Below, in pieces: positions 7,762-21,819 of a stretch of DNA of 27,179 nucleotides. Made by a program: the position numbers and the translations under genes. Within the stretch, counting starts at the first letter, position 1. The number at the start of each line of letters is the position of its first letter. The DNA is from Candidatus Thorarchaeota archaeon. Its GTDB lineage: Archaea > Asgardarchaeota > Thorarchaeia > Thorarchaeales > Thorarchaeaceae. The notes beneath the pieces were generated by a model. The model made no database searches and was not told the DNA's origin. It saw nothing but the letters and a program-made list of their open reading frames with translations. The DNA is taken from the NCBI GenBank assembly GCA_038893995.1, contig JAWAQK010000033.1, positions 1-27,179 on the forward strand, read 5' to 3'.

Positions 7762-9147
7762 TTAGGCCAAGTCAAGAGGAGCTGTATCACGTCTTGCTTC
7801 CTGTCTCGCTACAGCGTAAGAGCACACATCCAGGATGTCACCGTGACTCCATGCAGACTCCTTCCTCTTGCGGTCAAATAGGAGTGACAGGGGCATTCTC
7901 CTCTCGGAACCAGAAGAAACGACGTGCGCAGAGAGGGCCCTGTTCAGATTGAGTTCGGATCTCAGTGCGTCAACGACTGCACGTCCTGCACCCGCTGGCA
8001 ACGCGGTCGTGAGAATGGCCCTCTGATCGCTGGTGTCCTCGATATTAGTGATACGAGACGCGTAAGTGAGGGGTAAATGAAACCAGGCGGGTAGGACATC
8101 TCCGGCTCGGTCGGCGGGTATCATTGCAACCACCCTCTCACTGAGAAGTGGGATATCTACTGTAATTCGGGGGACCAGCAGACCTCTCGTGAGCACGGAC
8201 CTCCTGATCCTGAATACTGCGGAGCGTGAGAGACCAGAGACAGACGAGATCTGCGAGGCAGTTGCATCAAAGTTCGTGCGCATCATATCAATGACGCGGA
8301 GTTCAGACGTGCTGAGCGAGGGGGATACCGACATGGGCATCGAATCAGGTGCTAGCACTAGCTTGCTGTCGCCTCCCCTGAGCGCAATCCGGAAATGGAG
8401 AAGGTCAGGGGCCCACGAGAGAGGCTGTGCCCTATAGTACAGGGGCGAGAACCGTGTCTTGCCCTCTGCAAGCCGCCACATCGTGACATTGGAGGCGGAT
8501 GAGCGGAGGGCTCGAAGGTAATCAATCACAGCAGACCTCTTATCCATGGGACAAGTTATCACAAGAAGGACCAACGAGACTGGCCCATCGACGAAGAGCG
8601 TGTGCTCAATGAACTCGGATTGGAGTACAAACGCGGGCTCTTCGAGCACAGCCAGTATTCTCTCGAGACCCATGGCATCATATCTCAGCAGTCCCCTCTT
8701 CCTCAAGACTCCCGACTGGGTCAGCCTATTGTATGCCCTGCGAATACGACCATATGCCACTCCTGTCCGCTCACTCAGGTTGGACAGGCTCATTGTGGGC
8801 TCCCTGACCAGGTTTCCGATACAGAGGATCTCGATGCTACTGAGTCTGGAAATGTTACTTCTCCATATCCACTCAGCGATGAACTGAACATCATGCTGGG
8901 TCACAATCGAGACATGTCCTCTAGACAGACTCTCACGTATCGTTTCGAGGATCTGACTGTATAGGCTGCCACGAGTTGTCAGACACATCATCTCAAGGCG
9001 ACGATTGTATGGATCATCCTCAAACAGGTCAGGGCTTGCGCCCTGTTCGATCGAGAGCAGATGTTTCATCAGGGACTGGGCTGCTGGCGAGAGTGAGAGC
9101 AAGACCGCATCAGCAGACCCCCGTGTTGCCATGGCTTCTGTCGTCAC
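7762..9147 (-). CDS. Large protein with tandem Lrp/AsnC-like winged-helix modules
   Basis: Two HTH-like segments (PTMSLSNLSERTGVAYGRIRRAYNRLTQSGVL...YDAMGL and DATASQISSVSGLSRSAVFRIRRSVLTRGLL), each followed by alpha/beta sequence. Confidence 0.6.
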   Translation of the reverse strand: MTTEAMATRGSADAVLLSLSPAAQSLMKHLLSIEQGASPDLFEDDPYNRRLEMMCLTTRGSLYSQILETIRESLSRGHVSIVTQHDVQFIAEWIWRSNISRLSSIEILCIGNLVREPTMSLSNLSERTGVAYGRIRRAYNRLTQSGVLRKRGLLRYDAMGLERILAVLEEPAFVLQSEFIEHTLFVDGPVSLVLLVITCPMDKRSAVIDYLRALRSSASNVTMWRLAEGKTRFSPLYYRAQPLSWAPDLLHFRIALRGGDSKLVLAPDSMPMSVSPSLSTSELRVIDMMRTNFDATASQISSVSGLSRSAVFRIRRSVLTRGLLVPRITVDIPLLSERVVAMIPADRAGDVLPAWFHLPLTYASRITNIEDTSDQRAILTTALPAGAGRAVVDALRSELNLNRALSAHVVSSGSERRMPLSLLFDRKRKESAWSHGDILDVCSYAVARQEARRDTAPLDLA

Positions 9148-12863: not shown

Positions 12864-13067
12864 CTACGACCAAATGTAGTCATGACTGTGCTCTCTCATT
12901 AGTGTTGTGAAATCGGGCGCACAGGGATGTACGGAACATCATCTCATGGGCAGGATCAATCTCCCCGTCCCGGTAGGCCTAGCGGTGATGCGAGCCATGT
13001 TTGGCTCGGACCCGAAAATGGGACATTCACTGGTTCACTGGAACGGAGATGCATATGCACTCAGTTA

Positions 13068-13077
13068 CATTAATAGC
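13068..13077 (+). promoter_or_regulatory. TATA-like box of the gelsolin gene (probably leaderless transcript)
   Basis: TTAATA at 13070-13075, about 25 nt before ATG 13100. Confidence 0.4.
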
Positions 13078-13099
13078 AAGCGGAGCAACACTTGGTAGT

Positions 13100-13690
13100 A
13101 TGGTCGAAGTGTACCATATCCAGAAGGGAAAGCTGGTCAGAGTCCCAAACCCTGGAAGGTTTGGAAGAGGTGATTGCTATCTTGTGGATGCGGGACCCAA
13201 GATCTACCTGTGGATAGGGCCCAAATCGACGCCTGACGAGAAGTTCCTCGCAGCCGCAGAGGCCGTGTTCCGTGATGTCAAGAGGATGGGCGAGGCGCGC
13301 ATCGAACACGTCGAGGGTGAGAAGGAACCAGCTGAGTTTAGGAAGCTCTTTCAGAAGATCGAGATCACCGATGAGGATACAGAGAGCATCCTCAAGAAGG
13401 TTCAACTTCAGAAACATGAATACAAGCTCTGGAGGCTGAGCAGGGATGCTGGAGACTCATACTACGTGGAGGTCCCCATAAAGAGGAGCTCCCTTGACAG
13501 CGAGGACGTATTTGTACTCGACACATGGGACAAGATCTACGTGTGGAGAGGAAAGAGGAGCTCGGCAAGAGAACGGTTTGACGCCACCCTTATCGCAAGG
13601 AGCTATGATGCCGAGAGGGTTGGGGTGCAGAAGATCGTGATCGTTGACGAGGGACAGGAACCTCCTGACTTCTTCAAGGCCCTCGAATAG
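13100..13690 (+). CDS. Two-domain gelsolin-like actin-binding protein (Asgard 2DGel type)
   Basis: Two gelsolin repeats (GRFGRGDCYLVD..KIYLWIG.KS..DEK...EPAEF; SSLDSEDVFVLDT.DKIYVWRG..SS..ER...DEGQEPPDFF) joined by an LKKV linker. ATG 13100 preferred over TTG 13001. Confidence 0.9.
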   Translation: MVEVYHIQKGKLVRVPNPGRFGRGDCYLVDAGPKIYLWIGPKSTPDEKFLAAAEAVFRDVKRMGEARIEHVEGEKEPAEFRKLFQKIEITDEDTESILKKVQLQKHEYKLWRLSRDAGDSYYVEVPIKRSSLDSEDVFVLDTWDKIYVWRGKRSSARERFDATLIARSYDAERVGVQKIVIVDEGQEPPDFFKALE

Positions 13691-13707: not shown

Positions 13708-15147
13708 CTAGACAAGACGAAAGTGACCAGGCCGAGGTTCGTACAAGACCCCAGCCTCCTTCATCTTGGAGAGCTCTGCTGCGACCTGGTGAACATCCAT
13801 ACCTGCTTCGACAGCGATCTCGTCAAGAGTCGGTCCCAATGCTGTGGTTGTCCCAGAGTCAAGCCGGCTGAGCACCTTTAGTAACTTGGTGCTGAACTTC
13901 TCAATACGAGCTTCTTCACCCCACCTGTCCGCCGCATCAGCCTTGACCTGTACCAGCTCTATATATGACCTCAGCGCCGGCTCAAGCACTCTGTCCCAGG
14001 AGCCCCGAACATCATTGACTACAATCCGTTCCTTCCACTGTGACCTGGCTGTCGATCTCGCGACACGAATTGCACTCAAGGAACGCCCGTCCTGATCAGC
14101 ATCAAGCAGACCCCCTCTACACATTACTGTGTCAGGGAGGCCATAGATCTCCTTGATGTGCTCAATCCGTCGGAGCACGTGTTTGACACTTGCAACTATG
14201 GTCTGTTCAGAAACCTGCGGTGAGAGAAGCTGGTAAGTGATAATTGACTTTGTAATGGGGAGTCTGAGGGTCCCCCAGTCGCGCGGCTCAATCCAGAAGT
14301 CGTCCGATGTCAGTACCAGAGGTATGTCGGGCAGCGTGGACGTATTCGGATCTGTCAACGTGCTCAGTGAAACTTCTCTGAATCCAGACATGTCCCTCCT
14401 TTCAACACAGAGCTTCCGCAGATGAGCGGGACTGTATGTTCCCACTTCAAGTCGCCACAACCTGGGGATGTCCACCTGAATACCACTGATGTCAATGGAG
14501 CGACTCCGCCTGTTTCGGAAACTTGGTGGTACTATTCCTCTCATGAATGACAGTAGCTGTCGGATATGTCTTTGTGACGCTTGCGCCTGGACCCCACAGG
14601 TGAGCCCTCCGACCGAATCAGCATATGGAGGGCTAGATATGAAGAGCCGAGTGAAGACCGCCTTGCTTGACTCCTCCAGACCTACATGTTCGAACAGCAG
14701 TTCAGACAGCTCCGAGAGCTGCATGGGCCGGGGAATGATTCTCGTCACATCGAGAGGCTGACTCTTGACACTCTCAGCCATGAATGCCTCAACACTAGTT
14801 CCATTGCGTTCGATAAGGTGTGGAACGGCCAGCCGTCGACCAATGACCTCTACGAACGATCCGTCCGGTGGAGCGTCCTCATCTGGATCCAGACAGATGG
14901 GCGTGCCACTTGCAAGCCAGGGACTGGGCGATACGAAGAATAGCGATCTGTACCTAGTGTGGCGCACAAAGCCACGGAACCTGTATAGCTGTCCTCCAAT
15001 GCGTTTTCTGAAGTCACTCACGAAGGTACGTTCCCACTCAGCAAGCTCTGAACCGCTCTCCCTCTCAAACACGTCTCGTTTACCCTCGACCTGTTCGAGA
15101 GGGTCGCGCTTTTCTGTGCCTGGAATGTCAGGACCCCGTGTTTCCAT
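13708..15147 (-). CDS. Degenerate MCM-like protein (OB-like N-terminus, eroded AAA+ core, AAA lid, C-terminal winged helix)
   Basis: HVGLEESSKAVFTRLF...RQLLSFMRGIVP parallels MCM IYGxExxKxAIxLxLF...GDPGTAKSQLLxYxxxxAP but has no P-loop. GRSLSAIRVARSTAR...IVVNDV is a lid-like helix pair. KEAGVLYEPRPGHFRLV matches the archaeal MCM winged-helix end. Start is ATG 15147 or GTG 15201. Confidence 0.6.
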   Translation of the reverse strand: METRGPDIPGTEKRDPLEQVEGKRDVFERESGSELAEWERTFVSDFRKRIGGQLYRFRGFVRHTRYRSLFFVSPSPWLASGTPICLDPDEDAPPDGSFVEVIGRRLAVPHLIERNGTSVEAFMAESVKSQPLDVTRIIPRPMQLSELSELLFEHVGLEESSKAVFTRLFISSPPYADSVGGLTCGVQAQASQRHIRQLLSFMRGIVPPSFRNRRSRSIDISGIQVDIPRLWRLEVGTYSPAHLRKLCVERRDMSGFREVSLSTLTDPNTSTLPDIPLVLTSDDFWIEPRDWGTLRLPITKSIITYQLLSPQVSEQTIVASVKHVLRRIEHIKEIYGLPDTVMCRGGLLDADQDGRSLSAIRVARSTARSQWKERIVVNDVRGSWDRVLEPALRSYIELVQVKADAADRWGEEARIEKFSTKLLKVLSRLDSGTTTALGPTLDEIAVEAGMDVHQVAAELSKMKEAGVLYEPRPGHFRLV

Positions 15148-15495
15148 AGTCAGTCCCCACCTGTGTTCGGGGCGCTCCGTTTGAGAAACGTTTCCTGCCA
15201 CTACCTACTGAGAGCCTCTGTGCGTCCAGCTCTTGAGCTGAGGAGCGGTGAACTGGAACCGAAGCACAATCAGGTCGGTGTAGGCCATGTCAGCATATGA
15301 GTTTTGAGCCTAGGATGTAGAAGCGAAGACCCTGTCTTGCGTTGGTTGAGGCACAGGCTCTCTCTCATCGTGGATATGAGAGTGCATGCGGGGGATTCTG
15401 GCATGTAGCAGGACTCCTTAGAATCAATGAATCCTCCAACGGAGACATGGCGCTTGGGGAGAATCAAGAACACTGGGTTAAGAGAACTGGAATGT

Positions 15496-15541: not shown

Positions 15542-16681
15542 CTAGATACAGCGGTGAATCACTTCTGGTCCTGCCTCTTCAAACTCCTTCTTCGAGACCC
15601 ACATCTTCTGGAAGGTCTTGAGCGAGGCAAGTATGGACCCACCAATCCAGACGGAATACTGTCGCTCGGGCGGAGCAATTATGCGCACCTCGATATTCTC
15701 GGGAACCAGCTCGCTTATCTCCTTGTGGAGCCGCTCCTTCAGGCCCGGGAACATTGTCGAACCGCCGGACAGCACTATGTTGGCGTACAGATCACGTCGC
15801 AGGTCCACGTCACAGGCCTTGATAGACTCGACAATGTGTTCGTCCAGAGGTACAGTGTCAAGCCCGATAGCACTCGGGTTGAAGAACAACTCTGGTGCCT
15901 GGAAACGTTCTGCGCCAATCGTGATCACCTCACCATCGGGCAACATGTAGGGCTTGTCAACACCAGCCTTGTCGGCGACCGTCCGCTCACGCTCCGGATC
16001 AAGAGCAACGTAGCAAAGCTTCTCCTTTATGTCACGGACAATCTCCTTCTCCGCTCCGCTGACGAAGGAATAGCCTCTCTGTCTCAGCAGCCGACGCAAG
16101 TATTCGGTTATGTCTCGCCCAGCCAAATCAATTCGACGAATTGCATGGTTGATTGAGAAACCCTCGTAGATCGGGACAATGTGTGTGACACCATCACCAG
16201 AGTCGATAACCAGACCGGTCGTGCGTCCTGAAGCATATAGTGAGAGGACGGCCTGTGTTGCAACGTAAACTGCGGGAACACCGAAGTTGTCAAACATCAC
16301 AGACGCCATGCGTTCTCTGTTCTCACGGGGGTTGAAAGGTGCTTCAGTCAGCAGGACAGGGTTCTCGCTGGGATCTACCTTGAGGTCGTTGTAGAACGTG
16401 TAAGACCATATCTTCTCAATTGCATCCCAGTCATCAATCACACCATGGGTGATTGGATACACGAGACGGAGAACACCCCTGAGGTTTATGGCCTCTTCAC
16501 CAATGTAGTAGTCCCTGGTGTAGTGATCCACGTCCGTCATGATGTGCTCGTATCTCGGATATCCAATCAGTGTAGGCCAGACACTGCGAGGCTGATCCTC
16601 ACCAGCGTAGCCGTTCTTCGACAGGCCAGTACCGTTATCAATGACGATAGGTTTGCTGCCTAGAAACATGTCTTCAGCCAT
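15542..16681 (-). CDS. Actin (Asgard/Lokiactin-like, eukaryote-type)
   Basis: [123 protein letters not shown] upstream. Confidence 0.98.
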
Positions 16682-17047: not shown

Positions 17048-17842
17048 ATGCACCGTAACATCGACGAACTCGTCCGCAAGGAGATAGAGAGTGTAAGGGC
17101 TAGGAAGATCATTCTCGAGGAGCTTGAGAAAGGATCAAGGAATGGGAATGAGCTCAGAAAGAGAATACAGGAGGATATGATTGAGCAGGCGAGGGAAAAG
17201 GACCCAGGGAAGACGATCGATCCAGACGAGTACGTAGTCACGGACCCGAAGCTCTACTTCAACACAAGACATCTCGAGTCGATGGGCCTCATAGTCAGTC
17301 ATAAGGAGTCCCAGCAGAGAGTATTCATGCTACATCCGAAGTCAGTCCACGCAGTCCGTCGCGTCCTTGGCGTCACAAGACCCACAGTCATATTTACGTC
17401 CATGACCCGACCCGATGACATAAGGCCGTTAATGCACTGGTTCACTGCAGAGGCAGAATCACACTTCAAGAGCCTGAGACTAATAGTGGAGAAGGAGCGA
17501 TTCTCGAAGGGCGTGACAAAGGATCTAGAGAGATTCGTGGCAGAGGGTAGCACCAAACGATGGTCGAGTCATTGGGACGAACTGCCAGAGCATGTAGTAG
17601 GATATTATGACGGGGGTACACAGGGAGACCTGATGGCGACATACGCGCACATTGAGAGGATGCTTATGGAGGAGATACCTGAGAGGAGCGTAGTGTTCGA
17701 TCTCTCTACAGCACCACCCGTGATAGCGATCGCGTTCTGTCTGCTATCAAACGATTACGCAATTCCAGCCATCTACATCAGGCGCAGAGTCGGTCCCAAG
17801 ACAGGGATCACGCACTACATTCCAGGAGCTGGTCTGATCTGA
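17048..17842 (+). CDS. Winged-helix regulator with a C-terminal CARF-like Rossmann domain
   Basis: N-terminal PadR/ArsR-like wHTH (IILEELEKGSRNGNELRKRI...KLYFNTRHLESMGLI...RVFML). C-terminal TVIFTS...DLMATYAHIERML...VVFDLSTAPPVIAIAFCLLS...PAIYI resembles the CARF DxTGG helix-strand pattern. Confidence 0.55.
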   Translation: MHRNIDELVRKEIESVRARKIILEELEKGSRNGNELRKRIQEDMIEQAREKDPGKTIDPDEYVVTDPKLYFNTRHLESMGLIVSHKESQQRVFMLHPKSVHAVRRVLGVTRPTVIFTSMTRPDDIRPLMHWFTAEAESHFKSLRLIVEKERFSKGVTKDLERFVAEGSTKRWSSHWDELPEHVVGYYDGGTQGDLMATYAHIERMLMEEIPERSVVFDLSTAPPVIAIAFCLLSNDYAIPAIYIRRRVGPKTGITHYIPGAGLI

Positions 17843-18546
17843 AGAACAGACATCTGCCGCTCGAGAGACTAGACATCGACTTTGCGCTCTCATCCCTCAT
17901 TGATCTTGTCACGAAGGATCTCTCAGCGGTGAGTGCAACTGACTCGAGGCTAAGGGCCAAGTTCACGAGATGGATCAACCAGCTCGTCACCATAAGAGAG
18001 GGAATACACAGGGCCGCGGCGACTCTGAATGAGAGACTGGTCGGAACTGTAGCACTGAATGTTGATCCGGAGTTGCTGACCGTTGCCATGTTTCAGCCCA
18101 GCACCAGAAACGTGTTTCTTGAGATTGAAACTCATCATTGCAGGCAGGGAAGGAGTGTTCAGTGCGAGCATGCAAGGAGACTCTCTCTGATCAGTGATCT
18201 GGCGCGCGTCTTGGCCCTAGTCGGGGATGCCGCCCTGTCAATTGCTGTGGTACATAGACTGTGGAACCCCTCGGTGCTCAGCGTGGGACGCCTCACACAG
18301 GTAAGAGCCAAACTTGTGAGCAATGAGAAACTCGCACAGGTATGCGACAGATGGGGCCTGTATGAGATGAGGATCCACTTTGATCCTGAGGTCACCACTA
18401 GGTCAGAGATAGATCGCGTCAAGGGGACGCTTGTGGAGGCGATAATTGGAGCAATCTACGTCGAGCATGGAATCGACGGAGTAGTGAAGACCACAGGGTA
18501 CATCCTAGCTCTCGACGAAATGCAGAAATCAGAACTGGGGGTCTGA
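17839..18546 (+). CDS. RNase III-domain protein (Mini-III-like, no dsRBD) with an N-terminal helical extension
   Basis: LALVGDAAL, GRLTQVRAKLVSNEKLAQ..WGL, GTLVEAIIGAIY. The frame is open back to CTG 17839, which overlaps the upstream TGA (CTGA); the track calls GTG 17929. Confidence 0.85.
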   Translation: MKNRHLPLERLDIDFALSSLIDLVTKDLSAVSATDSRLRAKFTRWINQLVTIREGIHRAAATLNERLVGTVALNVDPELLTVAMFQPSTRNVFLEIETHHCRQGRSVQCEHARRLSLISDLARVLALVGDAALSIAVVHRLWNPSVLSVGRLTQVRAKLVSNEKLAQVCDRWGLYEMRIHFDPEVTTRSEIDRVKGTLVEAIIGAIYVEHGIDGVVKTTGYILALDEMQKSELGV

Positions 18547-20814: not shown

Positions 20815-21819
20815 ATGATCAGATTGGCACTCGAGAAGAGTGTTGTATTGAAAGAGGCAATCACATCAATAGTCGTTGGAGACTTCGAGAGGAACAACAA
20901 TGACGAGATAGCCATAATGACAGCTGGAGGCAATCTGAGGGTCCTTAGGCTGGACTCAAAATCCAGAGAAACTCTCGAGATCGCAAGCATGGGGGGATTT
21001 TCCGCCACCTCGATGTGCGCTGGAAATGTCACGGGGACCGAGGGAATTGACTTTGTGATGGCTGAGCGGGGGGGAACACTGAGAATAGTGTCCCTGCACA
21101 ATGGGGCTCTCGATGAAGTTGGAGTGTATCCATTGGGAACAGAACCGACTGCTCTGGCAGTCCTCGATGTATTGGGCACCGATCGTGCGGGAGTTGTCGT
21201 CGCGACTAACGACTGTGCCATCAGATGCTACGGTTGGTTGGGGGACTGTCTAGATAAGATGGCACACAAGTCGGTAGACTATCCGATAATATCCATAGGG
21301 GAGTACAGGGCCAGGGGAATCCCCTACTCGCGTCTTGTTATTGGAGACAACAACAAGGGCCTTTATCTGTACCAGTATGCAGACGACCGCCTGCACGAGA
21401 TCGCTCGAGCAGCGGCCAGAGGAGCCGTGACATCGGTAACAGGAGGAAACATCACAGGCGGCCGGCTTGACGAGATTGTGTGTATCTCAGATGAGATCAA
21501 TATCACGGTATTCACAGCGGAGAACAACGCAATCAAGGCGATTGATAATCTAAAAGCGACCAGCAAGATAACCTCGGCAAAGACAGGAAACGTTGTGGGA
21601 AGCGGTACCTCGAACGATCAGATAATAGTGGCTCATGAGAACTCGAATGTGACGATCATGTCACTTGAGGGAAGACGACTGGTCCCCACGACAAGCCTCC
21701 GGACAGGGAGTGCTGGTCTTAGACCCCTACTGGCCATTGGCAGGCCTCGAGAGCATGGCAGCCTCATATACCATGCAGTAGATCGTACCGTAAACATCCT
21801 GTCAGTAGAGCATGTGTGA
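20815..21819 (+). CDS. Beta-propeller protein with FG-GAP/VCBS-like repeats, no signal peptide
   Basis: About seven ~45-aa repeats, including ITSIVVGDFERNNNDEIAI, TSMCAGNVTGTEGIDFVM, TALAVLDVLGTDRAGVVV, VTSVTGGNITGGRLDEIVC, ITSAKTGNVVGSGTSNDQIIV. Confidence 0.75.
   Translation: MIRLALEKSVVLKEAITSIVVGDFERNNNDEIAIMTAGGNLRVLRLDSKSRETLEIASMGGFSATSMCAGNVTGTEGIDFVMAERGGTLRIVSLHNGALDEVGVYPLGTEPTALAVLDVLGTDRAGVVVATNDCAIRCYGWLGDCLDKMAHKSVDYPIISIGEYRARGIPYSRLVIGDNNKGLYLYQYADDRLHEIARAAARGAVTSVTGGNITGGRLDEIVCISDEINITVFTAENNAIKAIDNLKATSKITSAKTGNVVGSGTSNDQIIVAHENSNVTIMSLEGRRLVPTTSLRTGSAGLRPLLAIGRPREHGSLIYHAVDRTVNILSVEHV

Follow-up and report, generated by a model that had tools for sequence, protein, structure and literature searches.

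A very probable ATPase-dead paralogue of the replicative helicase MCM, encoded beside actin and gelsolin genes in a Thorarchaeota genome

We analysed a stretch of 27,179 nucleotides (nt) from a Candidatus Thorarchaeota archaeon (assembly GCA_038893995.1, contig JAWAQK010000033.1, positions 1 to 27,179), which is called the window below. On its minus strand, between a gelsolin gene and an actin gene, lies a currently unannotated gene whose product is, with little doubt, an ATPase-dead paralogue of the archaeal replicative helicase MCM. The protein is an MCM homologue that contains an OB fold, an AAA+-like core, an MCM lid and an MCM winged helix. The evidence for the gene, for its kinship with MCM and for the loss of the ATPase site is described first, followed by its distribution, its possible role and its neighbourhood.

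An earlier reading made from the letters alone (the sequence-only reading) had proposed an MCM-like frame at 13708-15201, with no strand given, and had quoted from it the strings GLEESSKAVFTRLF, QAQASQRH, RQLLSFMRGIVP, RSLSAIRVARSTAR...VNDV and a terminal GVLYEPRPGHFRLV. All of these strings are present in the translation of one open frame of 497 codons, which begins with GTG on the minus strand of this interval; the plus strand across the same interval is interrupted by many stops. The frame therefore stands as proposed, while its start probably does not, because the product most likely has 479 rather than 497 amino acids (aa), from ATG at 15147 to the TAG stop at 13708-13710. Some 190 homologues in the database have a length of 478-481 aa and share this start, and a Shine-Dalgarno-like run, GGTGGGG, is found at 15155-15161, 7 nt on its 5' side. 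The agreement of these observations led us to take ATG 15147 as the likely start. The DNA runs that contain the window are hot-spring metagenomes. The gene is accordingly divided as follows.

13708..15147, minus strand: coding sequence of the MCM paralogue (open reading frame (ORF), with length and start as in about 190 homologues; database entry P0002)
15148..15201, minus strand: 18-codon upstream extension from GTG 15201, probably 5' leader (most homologues start at ATG 15147; contains the Shine-Dalgarno-like run)

The relationship to MCM is not visible to single-sequence comparison. Pfam and NCBIfam scans of the paralogue gave nothing useful, and the sole hint from a single-sequence search was the winged helix of Sulfolobus solfataricus MCM with an E value of 1.7. 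When a profile of 41 family sequences was compared with the PDB, MCM 8x7t was matched with an E value of 1e-4, and the aligned part, residues 353-479 of the query against residues 553-682 of MCM (8x7t_D), comprises the lid and the winged helix. The same profile matched 2m45, the winged helix of S. solfataricus MCM, with an E value of 0.012, and also 4fdg. Alignment of the family with 17 Asgard MCMs by hhalign gave probabilities of 96-98.6% and E values of 1e-9 to 4e-15; the best results, with probabilities of 97-98.6%, reached 4e-15 in the global and 6e-11 in the local mode. The 440-460 aligned columns keep the MCM order throughout, beginning in the OB fold and ending in the final strand of the winged helix. 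A profile made from the distant members alone matched MCM separately (98.2%, E value 4.5e-13), and the lid and winged-helix part of the family profile found the canonical MCM in most of 151 Asgard genomes, with E values of 1e-6 to 1e-11.

Pfam models were also compared with 89 members. MCM_WH_arc was matched in 29 of the 89 and MCM_C in 20 (best E value 5e-6), MCM_lid was matched in 13 (best E value 1e-3), and neither the MCM P-loop family PF00493 nor MCM_OB (PF17207) matched any of the 89, even at an E value of up to 1. The family stays below every Pfam gathering threshold for MCM, and its identity to MCM is only 9-14%. In the paralogue's own genome, PF00493 detects the canonical MCM and one unrelated AAA+ protein only. 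The Orc1/Cdc6 family, whose members also combine an AAA+ domain with a winged helix, was considered as the relative and was dropped given the OB fold, the MCM-type lid and winged helix, and match lists consisting entirely of MCM.

The predicted structure supports the same assignment. An AlphaFold (AF2) model, built from 89 sequences including distant relatives, had a predicted local distance difference test (pLDDT) score of 84.7 and a predicted template modelling (pTM) score of 0.78. In an earlier model from 41 sequences of Thorarchaeota only, the middle domain had a pLDDT of 60, and VIA-align gave Z scores of 8-9 with a root-mean-square deviation (rmsd) of about 14 Å; the addition of distant homologues cured this weakness. 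In a Foldseek search of the PDB, the top 50 matches were all MCM chains, both archaeal and MCM2-7, with a probability of 1.00 and E values of 1e-13 to 5e-11, and the alignments span 425-575 columns. The VIA-align comparison with MCM gave Z scores of 16-19 over residues 44-479 of the model. Against chains containing only the ATPase tier (8s0e_5 and 8q6p_7), the rmsd was 3.4 Å over 217-221 residues, with a Z score of 18. The nearest shapes in the ESM Atlas were three archaeal clusters of the same family, and all those that followed were MCM. The model thus shows an MCM-type AAA+ fold, and not only an OB fold joined to a winged helix.

From the alignments and the model, the protein was divided into five parts, all encoded on the minus strand.

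14743..15102, minus strand: short N-terminal helices and OB fold, residues 16-135 (model strands 47-129 with pLDDT 81-93; VIA and Foldseek align from residue ~44 to the MCM OB)
14605..14742, minus strand: helices preceding the AAA+ core, with GLEESSKAVFTRLF and the family signature, residues 136-181 (aligned to MCM SIAPSIyG-e-vK-aiaLlLFGG)
14128..14604, minus strand: degenerate AAA+ alpha/beta core, residues 182-340 (hhalign motif map; column counts; rmsd 3.4 Å to MCM5/MCM7 ATPase chains)
13912..14127, minus strand: MCM-type AAA lid, residues 341-412 (PDB profile match to MCM 8x7t_D; Pfam MCM_lid; column counts)
13711..13911, minus strand: MCM-type C-terminal winged helix ending GVLYEPRPGHFRLV, residues 413-479 (Pfam MCM_WH_arc and MCM_C; PDB 2m45; lid and winged-helix profile; conservation)

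The first part is the counterpart of subdomain C of the MCM N-terminal tier; the helical bundle of subdomain A and the Zn finger are absent. The second part ends with the signature [VI]-S-S-P-x6-G-G (S171, P173, G180 and G181). In the family, G59, P173, G180, G181 and R368 are invariant, the two glycines and the proline of the signature in all 89 sequences, and S171, E258, D274, P310, G354, P356 and S358 are nearly so; a separate measure, the mean column identity, is 68%. Several of these residues form short motifs: E258-x-S260 and D274-x-P276 in the AAA+-like core, and G354-[RK]355-P-x-S358 at the sensor-2 position of the lid, which also contains R368. Conservation is highest in the winged helix, with a majority fraction of 0.82 in Thorarchaeota, followed by the segment SSP-x6-GG and the lid. 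The AAA-like module and the winged helix are basic, with family median isoelectric points (pI) of 9.9 and 9.5. The window protein, P0002, is far less basic, with a pI of 6.8 overall, 6.5 in the lid and 7.0 in the winged helix, against family medians of 9.1, 9.2 and 9.5 (alignment A1). Longer fused forms of the family (897-2560 aa) were not found, in a search that was weak.

Next, the residues at the positions of the MCM ATPase motifs were compared. In the global profile alignment, GLEESSKAVFTRLFISS is placed opposite QGYERVKESIALLLFGG, and GGLTCGVQAQASQRHIRQLLSFMRGIVP opposite RGRSNILMIGDPGTGKSQILKFIAGLAS. From the latter pairing, the MCM P-loop GDPGTGKS is replaced by AQASQRH in the paralogue. 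The Walker A pattern GxxGxxK[ST] is present in both MCM controls and in none of 228 family proteins, and the columns aligned with it (188-195) are not conserved. At the position of the Walker B motif IDEFDK, the paralogue has a gap or HLRK. The sensor-1 strand (AAANP) and the PS1 segment are deleted. The arginine-finger position (SRFD) is occupied by Asp274, and by Asp in 87 of 89 members. On the other hand, the sensor-2 position has kept R or K in 78 of the 89 members, within G-[RK]-P-x-S. Two CxxC motifs, as required for the Zn finger, occur in none of the 89, whereas the canonical MCM of the same genome has CxxC at 191 and 213, which are invariant in 17 Asgard MCMs. With Walker A, Walker B, sensor 1 and the arginine finger all lost, the paralogue is predicted to be unable to bind or hydrolyse ATP in the manner of MCM, and unable to translocate on DNA.

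Members that are only 16-22% identical to the window protein have the same architecture and the same losses. Because these distant members share the losses and no Walker A was found among the 228 proteins, the inactivation appears to be ancestral to the family. Because the family has invariant features of its own, a maintained and different function fits better than decay, and the protein is thus, as judged from the sequences, an old pseudo-ATPase and not a decaying copy. Much of this had been noticed in the sequence-only reading: an OB-like N-terminus, MCM landmarks in the MCM order, Walker A replaced, Walker B and the Zn-finger cysteines missing, and an inactive MCM paralogue as the sum of these. 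The profile-profile alignment recovered the same correspondences, and each of these points is borne out by the counts and the model given above.

The census of the paralogue was made by scanning 151 Asgard genomes with the family profile. A full-length copy was found in 26 of the 26 sampled genomes of the GTDB family to which the window belongs (Thorarchaeota), with no internal stops, and outside that family in only four sampled Asgard genomes (G111, G025, G048 and G031). The genome of the window has one canonical MCM with complete motifs (L001:544-2751) alongside the paralogue. A profile search of 1.84 billion representative sequences yielded 74 proteins, of which about 60 are divergent relatives, mostly of 430-500 aa. 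By source name, the close homologues belong to Thorarchaeota, apart from a few listed as Sifarchaeia or Promethearchaeota. Few of the ~60 distant relatives carry names, and those that do are from Odinarchaeota, Asgardarchaeia, Methanomethylicaceae and Nitrosotalea sp. A partial entry on a 1.9-kb contig, with the label 'Patescibacteria', was regarded as mis-binned. By this distribution, the family appears to be old and patchy across Asgard archaea and Thermoproteota, neither Asgard-wide nor Asgard-specific, and the suggestion in the sequence-only reading that it is an Asgard trait had to be given up. Within the Thorarchaeota family of the window, it is a vertically kept core gene, and no member of the wider family seems to be catalytically intact.

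In many Asgard genomes (including loci L024-L033), the canonical MCM gene lies in an open frame of about 1,000-2,300 aa that Pfam MCM matches in two separate pieces, as would be expected if inteins were inserted in the ATPase domain.

What the protein does can be proposed from the distribution of its conservation. The strongest constraint lies on the MCM-type lid and winged helix, with a basic AAA-like module alongside, and we therefore propose that it binds to Orc1/Cdc6, DNA and/or MCM. When the helicase is recruited in Sulfolobus, the C-terminal winged helix of MCM is the part that contacts Orc1-1 bound at the origin (PMC12141716). A protein that has the MCM-type winged helix and lid and is unable to hydrolyse ATP might occupy or bridge the Orc1/Cdc6 initiator, bind DNA, or sit against an MCM subunit. 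Any such contact would tune the loading or the availability of the helicase, with the paralogue acting as a decoy, a co-loader or a chaperone. We regard a replication-linked, non-enzymatic role as an evenly balanced proposition, and docking on the initiator or on MCM specifically as a tentative one. A still bolder version, in which an ancient pseudo-MCM that predates the Asgard-Thermoproteota split docks on origin-bound Orc1/Cdc6 or caps the MCM ring, licensing or restraining loading as the archaeal counterpart of Cdt1, geminin and MCM-BP, and conceivably as the stock of MCM-BP, is unlikely.

Gene contexts in distant members give suggestive but thin hints at replication. In two Methanomethylicaceae genomes, the order is Cren7, the homologue, Orc1/Cdc6 and TFB (L085 565-4543 and L086 4810-8788), a region that is likely origin-proximal, and in a Nitrosotalea-type contig a PCNA gene is located 3 kb from the homologue. 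Several observations weigh against a role in replication or reduce its support. The two Methanomethylicaceae loci are close kin and count as one observation, and the neighbourhoods of the other distant homologues are unrelated housekeeping or mobile-element contexts. The OB fold has no basic residue that is conserved throughout the family. The paralogue also evolves faster than the canonical MCM, with 43-48% identity against 69-72% between the same pairs of genomes. Within the same order, a genome of a sister family that is 96% complete showed no full-length copy, so that not all relatives depend on the protein. A complex prediction with residues 140-650 of the canonical MCM and residues 20-479 of the paralogue, run without controls, gave a score of 0.00 and weighs neither way.

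The most serious alternative is that the protein is a DNA- or chromatin-binding scaffold or regulator, in repair, transcription or the nucleoid, which has nothing to do with helicase loading and which may self-assemble into a ring. The basic character of the AAA-like and winged-helix modules would suit such a protein, winged helices are generic binders of DNA and proteins, and many matches to winged helices other than that of MCM were seen. Across the lineages, moreover, no replication gene is a conserved neighbour, and Cren7 is among the neighbours of the homologue in Methanomethylicaceae. However, the lid and winged helix are of the MCM type and not of the MarR/TrmB type: MCM_WH_arc is the family that most members match, and the lid matches MCM_lid. 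We hold this explanation to be possible and rather improbable.

Descent from a common stock with a eukaryotic protein was considered next. If the paralogue were a true orthologue or precursor of MCM-BP (or of MCMDC2), it would be a chaperone of MCM subunits. MCM-BP has undergone the same kind of loss, being without Walker A, Walker B and the arginine finger (PMC10317167), and the MCM_bind cluster ranked 10 among language-model look-alikes with a score of 0.83, which is under the trusted value of 0.9. Conversely, Pfam MCM_bind matched none of the 89 members (E value up to 1) and nothing in the genome (E value up to 10), and it is not among the ten nearest shape neighbours in the Atlas, where MCM is. 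In addition, a family that is patchy in Asgard archaea and present in Thermoproteota does not fit inheritance by eukaryotes from an Asgard ancestor. Orthology is thus very unlikely, and of the kinship with MCM-BP and MCMDC2 suggested in the sequence-only reading, only the analogy is left.

An origin as a domesticated MCM remnant of a mobile element or virus, or a part in a defence module with the DNA methyltransferase that is frequently adjacent, is just as improbable. MCM-like viral clusters do occur among the look-alikes, one distant homologue adjoins an integrase and a DUF927 protein, and a methyltransferase precedes the gene in some Thorarchaeota genomes. However, no relative was found in IMG/VR viral contigs or in 50,697 phage records, the location of the gene is uniformly chromosomal, in Thorarchaeota within a colinear block of housekeeping genes (ribosomal proteins, Sua5, Cgi121 and others), and the methyltransferase is absent from this window.

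The position of the gene in the window at first suggests a different connection. As the sequence-only reading had stated, it is flanked by two genes of the cytoskeleton.

13001..13690, plus strand: two-domain gelsolin gene (Pfam Gelsolin, 3e-30; convergent, with 17 nt between the stop codons)
15542..16681, minus strand: eukaryote-like actin gene (Pfam Actin, 445 bits; 394 nt upstream, same strand)

From this arrangement, a factor had been proposed that might tie chromosome handling to the cytoskeleton. The regions of up to 19 kb around the gene were compared in 27 genomes of the window's family, in three distant Asgard genomes (G111, G025 and G048) and at locus L004. The gene directly adjoining it, in convergent orientation, is gelsolin in 26 of 28 related loci; actin is located upstream in six, 0.4 to ~7 kb away with other DNA between; in the window, actin is also co-oriented with the paralogue. 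Nevertheless, the convergent gelsolin must belong to a separate transcript. The M20 peptidase, luciferase-like, Ham1, TrmB and further genes are in the same order as well, so that colinearity extends through all 20 kb, and an adjacency of this kind is what synteny of the block within a single family would predict. Methyltransferase, Fe-S and NYN genes stand between actin and the paralogue in another Thorarchaeote, and such insertions, also of other genes, are seen in relatives. Neither actin nor gelsolin is near the gene at the three distant Asgard loci or at seven loci of distant homologues, including those of Methanomethylicaceae and the Nitrosotalea type. Because the block is colinear and the distant loci do not have these neighbours, the adjacency is best read as inherited gene order, and the coupling factor is hardly credible. 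Finally, a lineage-specific decaying copy of the canonical MCM, a pseudogene in the making, could account for the faster evolution, and its probability is negligible given an intact frame in all 26 family genomes, a length conserved in ~190 homologues, invariant motifs specific to the family, and the architecture and losses shared by homologues at 16-22% identity.

Other genes of the window encode ribosomal proteins S11, S4 and S13, TiaS, endonuclease III, Sua5, Cgi121, Ham1, an M20 peptidase and a luciferase-like oxidoreductase. In a run labelled as metatranscriptome, contigs cover parts of the actin gene and none of the paralogue, which says nothing on the expression of the latter; no RNA run is listed for the paralogue. 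In this run (X4), two 151-nt pieces with 99-100% identity lie within actin at 15596-16666 and nowhere else in the stretch compared, at best a hint that actin RNA was present in the hot-spring sample. Divergently beside actin, at 17048-17842 on the plus strand, is an ORF of 264 aa with no Pfam match, whose position is kept in six Thorarchaeota loci with 40-62% identity, and which could be an uncharacterised actin-associated gene. It is followed at 17929-18546 (plus strand) by the gene of a Ribonuclease III domain protein of 205 aa (Pfam E value 9e-15), which is conserved within this block in related genomes; to our knowledge, RNase III is uncommon in archaea. A 334-aa ORF at 20815-21819 (plus strand) has a sub-threshold match to the BBS7 beta-propeller (E value 1e-5, 25.3 bits with a cut-off of 27) and counterparts of 35-39% identity in two related loci. 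A protein of 461 aa encoded at 7762-9147 on the minus strand, to which several winged-helix models (MarR_2, HTH_24 and TrmB) match weakly, is fixed in the colinear block, with only 29-42% identity within the family.

Archaeal replication is taught as the work of one active MCM homohexamer that is loaded by Orc1/Cdc6. A motor-less relative of MCM that is kept beside the active helicase suggests a non-catalytic player in chromosome replication or maintenance that has gone unrecognised, and it occurs patchily in Odinarchaeota, Methanomethylicia and Nitrososphaeria besides all 26 genomes of the Thorarchaeota family. We found no published description of such a pseudo-MCM family in the full-text literature, and a survey of the Asgard replisome from 2025 reports MCM as mostly single-copy, without the words 'inactive' or 'pseudo' (PMC12680538). 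Several hundred database entries named 'hypothetical protein' gain a name by this assignment, and a tempting link between replication and the Asgard actin cytoskeleton is removed as unsupported. With 479 aa, a soluble appearance and a confident model, the protein is a tractable target for asking how archaea regulate the loading of their helicase and whether MCM relatives of the pseudo-ATPase kind, such as MCM-BP, predate eukaryotes.

Compared with the canonical archaeal MCM (PDB 8x7t; S. solfataricus 6mii and 2m45; M. acidophilum 8q67; and the MCM of its own genome, L001:544-2751), the paralogue has the same colinear series of OB fold, AAA+ core, lid and winged helix. It also shares the lid motif, with a basic residue at the sensor-2 position and A-x-A-R, and the wing motif G-h-h-[YF]-E-P-[KR]-x-G-x-[YF]-[RK]. 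On the other hand, it is about 210 residues shorter, is without subdomain A, the Zn finger, Walker A and B, sensor 1 and the PS1 hairpin segment, and has Asp in place of the arginine finger and a signature of its own, SSP-x6-GG. The MCM paralogues known from Methanococcales and Thermococcales have full length and intact ATPase motifs and often derive from mobile genetic elements, whereas every member of the present family is truncated and motif-less. In those two orders, the extra MCM-family genes are found beside the essential helicase (PMC12680538, PMC3307487). The eukaryotic MCM-BP (PF09739) is, like the paralogue, a distant relative of MCM without a motor, having neither Walker A and B nor the arginine finger (PMC10317167), a shared loss that is not proof of common descent. 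The paralogue differs from it in being shorter, in ending with a winged helix of the archaeal MCM type and in having no sequence match to MCM_bind, and its distribution gives no indication that eukaryotes inherited it. A parallel is also provided by the archaeal RecJ/Cdc45 homologues arCOG00428, arCOG00432 and arCOG05692, which have lost the catalytic site and are interpreted as dedicated structural parts of the replication complex (PMC3307487). In both cases a dead enzyme of the replication machinery has been kept as a protein, but the fold of RecJ/Cdc45 is that of a DHH phosphoesterase, and the dead RecJ/Cdc45 proteins stand in for the active orthologue, whereas the present genome still has its active MCM as well.

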